Of a DNA stretch of 64,000 nucleotides, positions 6,107 through 7,326 are shown piece by piece. A program made the position numbers and the translations under genes. Position 1 is the first letter of the stretch; the number at the start of each line of letters is the position of its first letter. The notes beneath the pieces are model-generated. The model ran no database searches. It saw nothing but the letters and a program-made list of their open reading frames with translations, and had not been told where the DNA came from. The stretch spans positions 838,834 to 902,833 of the forward strand of contig JAUHZY010000001.1 in the NCBI GenBank assembly GCA_030425825.1, written 5' to 3'. The DNA is from Alphaproteobacteria bacterium. Lineage in GTDB: Bacteria > Pseudomonadota > Alphaproteobacteria > JAUHZY01.

Positions 6107-7264
6107 ATGCAGAATACGGGAAAACATATTTCTAAAAAATATAGTCTACTTAAAAAACTTGCACAAAAAGGAAAAATCACCCCTGAGTTTGTTTTGCGCA
6201 TGGCCTATGGCTCTGAAGCCTATAAAGACCTGGTTGCAAATATGGACGACAAAAAGAAAGAGCTTCTTAATAAACCAATTGATTTTCGTCTTAGCAACCC
6301 CAATGAAATAAGCAGTAACACTTTTGGATTTTATACACCGCGCGGCTCACAGCAACAGCCTGAAATAACGCTAAATCAGTTTTACGTAAACAACCCCAAA
6401 AGTCAGGAGTTTCCGATTACACTTCTTGCGCATGAGATGATTCATTATTTAGATGATGCCTCAGGCGAAAAAAGTAAGCCACAAGACCTTACAAAACGTC
6501 GACGAGAAACCCACAAGGCTATTCAAAAAACTGTGCGTTCAAAATCACAAGAAGATTTTACCAAAAACTACACAGCGGTCCTCAAAAGCCATTACGGCGA
6601 TGCAATGGCAGATGCCATTTTAGCAGATAAAGAGCATGCCCTTTCACAAGAGCAAGTTAACTATCAGCTTTCAAGTATTTCAAACTTTCTTTCTGGAAAA
6701 GAAGGTAATACTGGTTATGCATATAGCGTGAATTATCAAGAACTGAACTCTCGTATGACAGAGTTTATAACAGAGGTTTCCCGTTTTACAGGTAAGATGC
6801 CAAAGACACAGACCGATCTTGAGGCAACAATGATTGTTTCAGGCGTTGTTCTTCCACCATCAATCAAGCATAAATTAAAACATGATGCGGCATACAAACA
6901 AACCATTTTTAAATCTCTAGGGGTGAAAGATGGACACGAACTCAACAATTTAAGACAAGAGATACGCAATAGTGAAATTGCAAGTGGCGGCGCAGAAAAC
7001 CATATTAATGCAGCTCTAAAACAGTTTACTCCGAAGCAAAAAGAAGCTTTCTGGAAGGATGCCGCACCAAGAATCGCTCAACGCACGCTTGAGATTCAAG
7101 GTATGAAACAACAAGTTGCTCAAAAACGTTTCAAAGAAACACAGAACACAGAAGTGGCAAGCCTAAACAAGATGCTTAGCCAGCTTCATATTGACACATC
7201 TAATAAGGTAGATAACAAAGGCAAACCCGCCCTACAAAGACAAGCTCAAAAATCTCTAGCGTAA
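6107..7264 (+). CDS. Hypothetical Lys-rich hydrophilic protein with HExxH motif (putative Zn-metallopeptidase-like)
   Basis: 385 aa with RBS GGGAGAAG before the ATG. Motif LLAHEMIHYLDD (HExxH). C-terminal half is K/Q-rich and predicted helical. No signal peptide. Confidence 0.55.
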   Translation: MQNTGKHISKKYSLLKKLAQKGKITPEFVLRMAYGSEAYKDLVANMDDKKKELLNKPIDFRLSNPNEISSNTFGFYTPRGSQQQPEITLNQFYVNNPKSQEFPITLLAHEMIHYLDDASGEKSKPQDLTKRRRETHKAIQKTVRSKSQEDFTKNYTAVLKSHYGDAMADAILADKEHALSQEQVNYQLSSISNFLSGKEGNTGYAYSVNYQELNSRMTEFITEVSRFTGKMPKTQTDLEATMIVSGVVLPPSIKHKLKHDAAYKQTIFKSLGVKDGHELNNLRQEIRNSEIASGGAENHINAALKQFTPKQKEAFWKDAAPRIAQRTLEIQGMKQQVAQKRFKETQNTEVASLNKMLSQLHIDTSNKVDNKGKPALQRQAQKSLA

Positions 7265-7289
7265 AGCAGCATTGTCTCAAAACAATTTA

Positions 7290-7326
7290 AAGGGGGCTCG
7301 TCTTAAAGATAAGCCCCTTATTTTTT
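7290..7326 (+). terminator. Rho-independent terminator after HExxH gene
   Basis: AAGGGGGCT..AGCCCCTT hairpin followed by TTTTTTAT. Confidence 0.5.

Follow-up and report, generated by a model that had tools for sequence, protein, structure and literature searches.

What is a gene for a protein with a single HExxH motif doing between the two divergent halves of a gene cluster for bufferins, which are copper-binding peptides, and does it belong to that cluster? The question is raised by a 64,000-nucleotide stretch of DNA, hereafter the window, from an Alphaproteobacteria bacterium of the JAUHZY01 lineage (assembly GCA_030425825.1, contig JAUHZY010000001.1, positions 838,834 to 902,833, forward strand), in which a gene for the 385-residue protein P0001 lies between bufC and bufA. 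The best guess, held with a probability of roughly 0.4, is that P0001, a protein in the bufferin cluster but not of it, is minimal and zincin-like, evolves fast and may be exported as an effector. A first-pass annotation of the window had left two possibilities side by side, namely an unrelated insertion such as an effector-like metalloprotease, and an accessory protease or immunity factor of the system for ribosomally synthesized and post-translationally modified peptides (RiPPs). A comparison that bears on both is with a sister genome, represented by the metagenome contig L004, which carries the relative P0004.

The gene and its product

The following features of the gene and the tail of its product are given in window coordinates.

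6041..6069, plus strand: sigma-70-like promoter TTGATT-17-TATACT, matching the consensus at 9/12 positions
6095..6099, plus strand: ribosome-binding site (RBS) GGGAG, 7 nucleotides upstream of the ATG, read from the sequence
6107..7264, plus strand: coding sequence of the orphan protein P0001, with an ATG start and 385 uninterrupted codons
7007..7261, plus strand: basic tail rich in K, Q and A, residues 301-385 (K 14%, Q 14%, A 13%, net charge +9)
7291..7326, plus strand: rho-independent terminator, a hairpin at 7291-7319 followed by a T-run

The open reading frame (ORF) at 6107-7264 is confirmed as a real gene because of its codon usage and reading frame and because a full-length syntenic ortholog exists. 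Of the three frames, frame 0 scores clearly better than the others and is plainly the coding one, and the codon-usage score and the GC content at the first, second and third codon positions equal those of the neighbouring genes. That the frame is spurious or a decaying pseudogene is an idea to which the restriction of its homologs to one sister genome might lend itself, but the chance of it is very nearly negligible given the 385-codon open frame with host-like codon usage, the worse scores of the alternative frames, the good RBS, promoter and terminator, and an ortholog of the same length that is collinear across 367 residues and free of frameshifts.

The predicted promoter, RBS and terminator mark the gene as an apparently independent transcription unit. 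The number of promoter-like sites near the gene is not above the expectation from shuffled sequence, so the site at 6041..6069 is to be read as a consensus match only. The terminator hairpin, on the other hand, has a folding energy of -16.7 kcal/mol (z = -3.5), and none of 200 shuffles was equally stable.

Lysine is the most frequent residue of P0001 (11.2%), cysteine is absent, the grand average of hydropathy is -0.79 and the isoelectric point is 9.6. Neither a signal peptide nor a transmembrane-like segment was found in the protein, the highest mean of any Kyte-Doolittle 19-residue window being 0.83. P0001 is thereby shown to be a soluble, basic, cytoplasmically made protein, and the comparisons below show it to be lineage-restricted and very fast-evolving. 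The description in the first-pass annotation of a hydrophilic, Lys-rich protein of 385 residues with one HExxH motif, a K/Q-rich tail, its own RBS and a clean rho-independent terminator is thus borne out. The long helix ascribed to the tail is predicted by AlphaFold2 as a single helix, at low confidence.

A family of three members

The homology searches together covered about 15 billion proteins. Among 5.8 billion clustered proteins, a word-indexed search returned only P0001 itself, and exhaustive phmmer against 1.84 billion representatives returned one relative, P0004 (369 residues, E = 1.4e-17). The two proteins are about 25-26% identical and collinear over their full length (367 residues, pairwise E = 5e-25). 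P0004 is encoded on the 17.8-kb contig L004 in a slot identical to that of P0001, where the gene order is prfB - doxX - bufC - P0004 - P0005 - bufA - bufB - pnp - GT4 - rpe. P0005 (270 residues; L004 9714-10526) is the product of a tandem second family gene that starts 2 nucleotides past the P0004 stop; it lacks an HExxH and is homologous to P0001 and P0004 in the C-terminal module only (pairwise BLAST E = 7e-6 and 9e-4). A three-way MAFFT alignment suggested that P0005 had lost precisely the catalytic helix; as the pairwise BLAST comparisons support homology for the C-terminal module only, such a loss is not claimed.

No further members were found with a three-sequence profile among the 5.8 billion proteins, and when the window's ORFs in all six frames were searched with a family hidden Markov model, no paralogs appeared. 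Three members are thus known, spread over two genomes. Searches with P0001 gave no match among plasmids, no match among viral contigs, and among phages one non-significant match (E = 0.5). In the absence of any PHROG, plasmid or viral-contig match, an origin from a mobile element or phage was rejected. Inverted or direct repeats flanking the gene amount only to short matches at chance level. Recent horizontal transfer was likewise rejected, as GC content, GC3 and codon score equal those of the neighbours.

The rate of change of the family sets it apart from its surroundings, as seen from the identities of the flanking orthologs between the window and L004.

prfB: 87%
doxX: 76%
bufC: 69%
bufA: 88%
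bufB: 66%
pnp: 86%
GT4: 60%
rpe: 85%

Whereas these eight flanking orthologs are 60-88% identical, and the four buf genes 66-88%, the HExxH protein is only 25% identical between the same two genomes, and its gene has evolved about 3 times faster than the buf genes. The best conserved blocks between P0001 and P0004 are GK(M/L)PxTxTDL (residues 229-243) and QKExFWxxAxPxIA (residues 310-324). The motif helix comes third, as LAHEMI-HYLDD against LLHEVVGHHMDF, and is the best 15-mer of the N-terminal half. Both leading blocks fall in one region.

6791..7126, plus strand: C-terminal helical module, residues about 229-340, with the motifs (K/R)xPxTxxDL and QKxxFWxxxxPxxA

This module is the only part common to all three family members, and it is thus shown to be the actual signature of the family. 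It had no match in Pfam, the PDB or PHROG.

A putative zincin-like module

The catalytic proposal concerns two nested features of the N-terminal third.

6269..6541, plus strand: putative minimal zincin-like module, residues about 55-145, from AlphaFold2 and sub-threshold Pfam matches
6431..6445, plus strand: HEMIH motif (H109, E110, H113; residues 109-113), the only HExxH in P0001

In the proposed arrangement, the N-terminal third would form a minimal zincin-like module in which three short strands are followed by the active-site helix xLLAHEMIHYL. Zinc would be bound by H109, H113 and a third ligand from the next helix (E133 or H135), and E110 would act as the catalytic base. The C-terminal two thirds comprise the helical module and then the basic K/Q-rich tail. 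More speculatively, the protein may be exported and act on a non-self target, as an effector or a toxin-like protease and not as an enzyme of housekeeping; its extreme divergence from P0004, a tandem duplication in the sister genome in which the motif region was lost, and the positive charge at the C-termini of all three proteins would fit this.

Several lines of evidence are compatible with the zincin proposal. The H, the E and the second H are retained in both P0001 and P0004 despite an overall identity of 25%. An AlphaFold2 model from the three-sequence alignment has a predicted local distance difference test (pLDDT) score of 60-83 for residues 11-130 and predicts strands at residues 58-62, 74-77 and 86-89, a helix at 102-118 that carries HEMIH, and a further helix at 125-143. 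Candidate third ligands lie on this last helix (E133, at +24 from H109, and H135), and D117 is another; in P0004 a Glu stands at +22, and the Asp that corresponds to D117 is retained. The +24 position of E133 is the spacing of thermolysin-type gluzincins. Likewise, full-length P0001 matches the Pfam families Peptidase_M91 (E = 1e-3, 19.9 bits, residues 36-134) and SprT-like (E = 3e-3, 17.8 bits) below threshold, and its isolated N-terminal domain matches zincin families only, namely SprT-like (E = 9.5e-4, 19.4 bits), M91 (E = 2e-3, 18.9 bits) and M9 (E = 0.038). All zincin matches are lost when HEMIH is mutated. For calibration, a genuine minimal zincin of YgjP-like type encoded elsewhere in the window (38380-38967, minus strand; E = 3.5e-43) cross-matches other zincin families at similar strength. 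In a Foldseek search of the three-sequence model against BFVD, the matches of highest probability (0.47-0.77) include SprT-like phage proteins, with E > 0.1.

Other results weigh against a catalytic, exported zincin. When P0001 is shuffled with its composition preserved, 1.9% of the shuffles contain an HExxH by chance. P0004 reads HEVVGH, which retains the H and the E but has the second H displaced by one residue, and P0005, which is motif-free, has only the C-terminal module in common with the others, which suggests that the conserved function resides there. The Pfam scores of P0001 are below the gathering thresholds of 25.6 bits for SprT-like and 25 bits for M91, and the N-terminal domain of P0004 had no Pfam match whether its extra Gly was present or removed. 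In six controls in which LLAHEMIHYL was retained and both flanks were shuffled, 3/6 still matched zincin families at 12-19 bits (SprT-like 12-14 bits, M91 14-16 bits), and one matched M9 at E = 7.5e-4. Because the shuffled flanks around LLAHEMIHYL still match zincin families, the native context adds only about 3-7 bits, and the sub-threshold matches are largely motif-driven. The AlphaFold2 model has a mean pLDDT of just 57, from an alignment of three sequences; Foldseek against the PDB gave nothing at E < 0.5, and against BFVD all E-values exceeded 0.05 and none was significant. As for export, the only genes related to secretion seen in the 64-kb window are those of the flagellum and of one RTX protein, and the evolutionary pattern is all that speaks for an effector; no genes of type III (T3SS), type IV or type VI (T6SS) secretion systems were seen in these 64 kb plus about 4 kb of the 1.66-Mb genome.

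Several of these results also fit a non-catalytic orphan, in which the HExxH is fortuitous or decaying and the C-terminal module and tail act, for example by binding nucleic acid, membrane or protein. The chance rate of the motif, its altered form in P0004 and absence from P0005, the largely motif-driven Pfam matches, the non-significant Foldseek results, and the location of the two best conserved blocks in the sole part common to the three members all point that way. Against it, the H, E and second H persist at 25% identity within the best block of the N-terminal half; the LLAHEMIHYL context, the preceding predicted strands and the next helix with its Glu at +24 suit a zincin; and HExxGH is a working zinc motif in the peptidase family M49. 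Taken by itself the non-catalytic orphan is unlikely, and it is almost as likely as the best guess.

The zincin reading of P0001 is thus weakly supported, and the chance that the protein is a functional zinc hydrolase is put a little short of even. The metalloprotease suggested by the first-pass annotation is compatible with the topology of the AlphaFold model, which predicts the strands and the HExxH helix at modest confidence; third ligands are candidates only, in P0001 (E133, H135, D117) as in P0004 (the Glu at +22). A significant structural match did not emerge from Foldseek, the Pfam matches are sub-threshold and mostly motif-driven, and the motif of P0004 is HEVVGH.

Further results of these searches were set aside. 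From a single-sequence model with a pLDDT of 45, Foldseek against the PDB yielded a meaningless result. When the PDB was searched by sequence, P0001 and the family profile matched heme-oxygenase chains only, over residues 7-122 (E = 0.24-0.38); these matches are not significant, and that region is predicted to contain strands. The sole PDB match of the N-terminal domain alone, to LptE at E = 1.6, is noise.

Comparison with known protease families

In SprT-like or Spartan proteases (PF10263, clan Peptidase_MA), as in P0001, a short region of strands leads into a helix with xTLLxHEMxH, and a basic region accompanies a small, soluble domain. In contrast, P0001 scores 17.8-19.4 bits against a cut-off of 25.6 and P0004 has no match; P0001 also lacks a third-His segment of the GHGxxF type and a zinc ribbon, and its C-terminal module is unrelated. 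Similarly, the M91 family (PF14891), which comprises effectors of the NleD type from T3SS and T6SS, shares with P0001 the HExxH, a small soluble protein, the lack of a signal peptide and an effector-like evolutionary pattern. It differs in that P0001 reaches 19.9 bits against a cut-off of 25, P0004 has no match, shuffled flanks reach 14-16 bits on the M91 model, and the window offered no sign of a T3SS or T6SS.

A rival explanation takes the first of these resemblances literally, with P0001 as a cytoplasmic SprT/Spartan-like protease that its basic tail would hold on DNA or RNA, for instance to remove protein adducts or to process a nucleoid protein. SprT-like is the top Pfam match of the isolated domain (E = 9.5e-4), the sub-threshold BFVD matches include SprT-like phage proteins, the tail carries a net charge of +9, and an export signal is absent. 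The TLLAHEMIH active-site helix also seems to resemble the SprT consensus. However, the match spans only positions 30-73 of the 108 in the profile and ends at the HExxH helix, the downstream part of the SprT domain with its His and zinc-binding residues is unmatched, and housekeeping proteases of repair are seldom orphans with 25% identity between sister genomes. Such a protease is accordingly considered improbable.

The third resemblance is that of P0004, whose HEVVGH is a HEXXGH hexapeptide of the type found in M49 (dipeptidyl peptidase III). There is no similarity beyond the motif, M49 proteins being two-domain enzymes of about 700 residues with an EEXR(K)AE(D) motif that is absent here. 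Both HExxH and HExxGH are found among active members of M49 (PMC5805324, PMC9820243), and because of this the HEVVGH of P0004 need not be dead.

P0001 fits SprT-like and M91 only at the motif helix and the preceding strand, and it is assigned to neither because it fails the curated thresholds of both. The three proteins are best described, with weak support, as a new tiny orphan family that is putatively clan-MA-like and has a novel C-terminal module.

Relation to the bufferin cluster

The neighbours of the gene that belong to the bufferin cluster, with the candidate promoter of bufA, are as follows.

4628-5092, minus strand: doxX, transcribed away from the HExxH gene
5100-5891, minus strand: bufC/DUF2063, transcribed away from the HExxH gene
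7367-7395, plus strand: candidate bufA promoter TTGCCT-17-TATAAC, read from the sequence
7427-7675, plus strand: bufA (DUF2282, 4 Cys, Sec signal peptide)
7675-8532, plus strand: bufB (MNIO; NCBIfam MNIO_BufB 352 bits, cut-off 310)

Both genomes of the lineage have their bufferin genes in two divergent units, with doxX-bufC encoded on the minus strand and bufA-bufB on the plus strand (window 4628-8532, L004 7182-11712). The placement of the gene between divergent bufCD-like and bufAB-like units, as first annotated, is upheld by the Pfam and NCBIfam assignments. Elsewhere the arrangement is different. In all of 30 other bufferin loci (2 genomic, 28 metagenomic) the order is bufA-bufB-bufC-(doxX) on one strand, with doxX present where the contig is long enough, and none of the 30 contains a relative of P0001. 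The published core of the cluster consists of precursor, MNIO, DUF2063 and DoxX genes, other conserved genes occurring "in extremely low proportions", and the bufABC order is described as strictly conserved (PMC12452194). The HExxH gene thus resembles a member of bufABCD clusters in being physically embedded between bufC and bufA, and differs from one in that canonical clusters are colinear and have no such gene.

Synteny between the window and L004 extends over the entire neighbourhood, prfB through rpe, so the persistence of the slot in the sister genome says nothing about function. A terminator separates the HExxH gene from bufAB in the window. In L004 no hairpin with a T-run was found between P0005 and bufA, and read-through into bufA is possible there. 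Promoter-like hexamers read from the L004 sequence include TTGACC ... TG-TACAAT where the promoter of the HExxH gene sits in the window, and TTGGCT-17-TATAAA placed like the bufA promoter. Besides these, no operator-like block is conserved between the window and L004 in the spacers on either side of the gene (towards bufC and towards bufA). An operator shared by the two spacers was also sought, and rejected since their alignments have no conserved block.

Hence the link of the HExxH gene to the RiPP cluster is positional only. The gene is not a bufferin component; it is a lineage-specific insertion at a rearranged locus, resident in the gap made by the inversion of bufCD relative to bufAB. The unrelated insertion envisaged in the first-pass annotation is well supported by the gene's own promoter-like site and terminator, its absence from the 30 loci, and its 25% identity as against 66-88% for the buf genes. 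Co-occurrence in related loci, which had been proposed as a check, extends to the one sister genome and to none of the 30 others. Nothing supports the accessory protease or immunity factor that was its other suggestion, BufA having a Sec signal peptide.

A broader form of the accessory idea would give the protein a lineage-specific role, whether as an immunity-like factor or as a protease, chaperone or metal sensor with BufA or BufB/BufC as its target. It can draw on the slot between bufC and bufA kept in both lineage genomes, on the lack of a terminator between the family genes and bufA in L004, and on a His/Glu motif that could bind Cu or Zn. It is nevertheless highly improbable, given that the gene is missing from the 30 loci and from published cluster surveys, that the window gene is isolated from bufAB by a strong terminator, that synteny of the whole neighbourhood makes its position uninformative, that it evolves about 3 times faster than the buf genes, and that the Sec signal peptide of BufA leaves a dedicated leader protease unneeded (PMC12452194). 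Equally a long shot is that the family represents a new kind of metal-binding protein (HExxH or HExxGH with a novel helical module) recruited to the rearranged bufferin locus in this lineage only, for cytoplasmic sensing or handling of Cu/Zn or for BufA processing, with the bufABCD split linked to the insertion.

Implications

If the zincin reading is true, P0001 and its relatives would constitute a new family of minimal HExxH proteases with a very narrow distribution, fused to a novel helical module. Within it, sister orthologs would change between HExxH and HExxGH in nature, and one tandem copy would have lost the site. This would amount to a small but neat example of effector-like turnover in an alphaproteobacterium with a reduced genome. 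The result of use to bufferin biology is a negative one, in that the HExxH gene should not be counted as a member of the cluster. In addition, the locus shows that the bufABC order, called "strictly conserved", can give way to divergent bufAB and bufCD units. The two points do little to alter the current understanding of bufferins.

The host genome and the rest of the window

The host is a deep-branching alphaproteobacterium, as read from its sequence. Its PNPase is 86% identical to that of L004 and at most 65% identical to named sequences, the closest of which (63-65%) are from Azospirillum and other Rhodospirillales-type bacteria. The genome measures 1.66 Mb with a GC content of 41%, and its small size together with many orphans hints at host association.

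A three-gene ATP-binding cassette importer (an SBP_bac_1 binding protein, a 554-residue permease and an ATPase) occupies window positions 920-4631, between prfB and doxX, and is absent from the corresponding position in L004. At least eight further ORFs in the window have no Pfam match; the eight listed here encode 126-347 residues.

12783-13574, minus strand: ORF without a Pfam match
13541-13921, minus strand: ORF without a Pfam match
19612-20094, minus strand: ORF without a Pfam match
20326-21192, minus strand: ORF without a Pfam match
28352-28828, plus strand: ORF without a Pfam match
33919-34575, plus strand: ORF without a Pfam match
43898-44911, minus strand: ORF without a Pfam match
46685-47728, minus strand: ORF without a Pfam match

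They may encode further lineage-specific proteins that belong to the same evolutionary class as P0001. The first two encode hydrophilic proteins and are not found beside rpe in L004. The window otherwise carries housekeeping and biosynthetic genes, and at the Rfam gathering threshold the only RNAs in the whole window are a 6S RNA (26426-26582, plus strand; 53.6 bits) and one tRNA (42803-42887, plus strand).

Proteins with TPR and Sel1 repeats are common in host-associated bacteria, and the window encodes an 837-residue TPR-repeat protein (59709-62222, plus strand) and a Sel1-repeat protein (31279-31992, minus strand). Three FlgE-like hook paralogs and FlgK lie within 17 kb (39012-40520, plus strand; 47748-49205, 49235-50728 and 54558-55955, all minus strand), and three hook genes are an unusual number for a 1.66-Mb genome. 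Between these flagellar genes lies that of a 1161-residue RTX protein with 27 calcium-binding repeat stretches (51076-54561, plus strand), which is likely a substrate of a type I secretion system.

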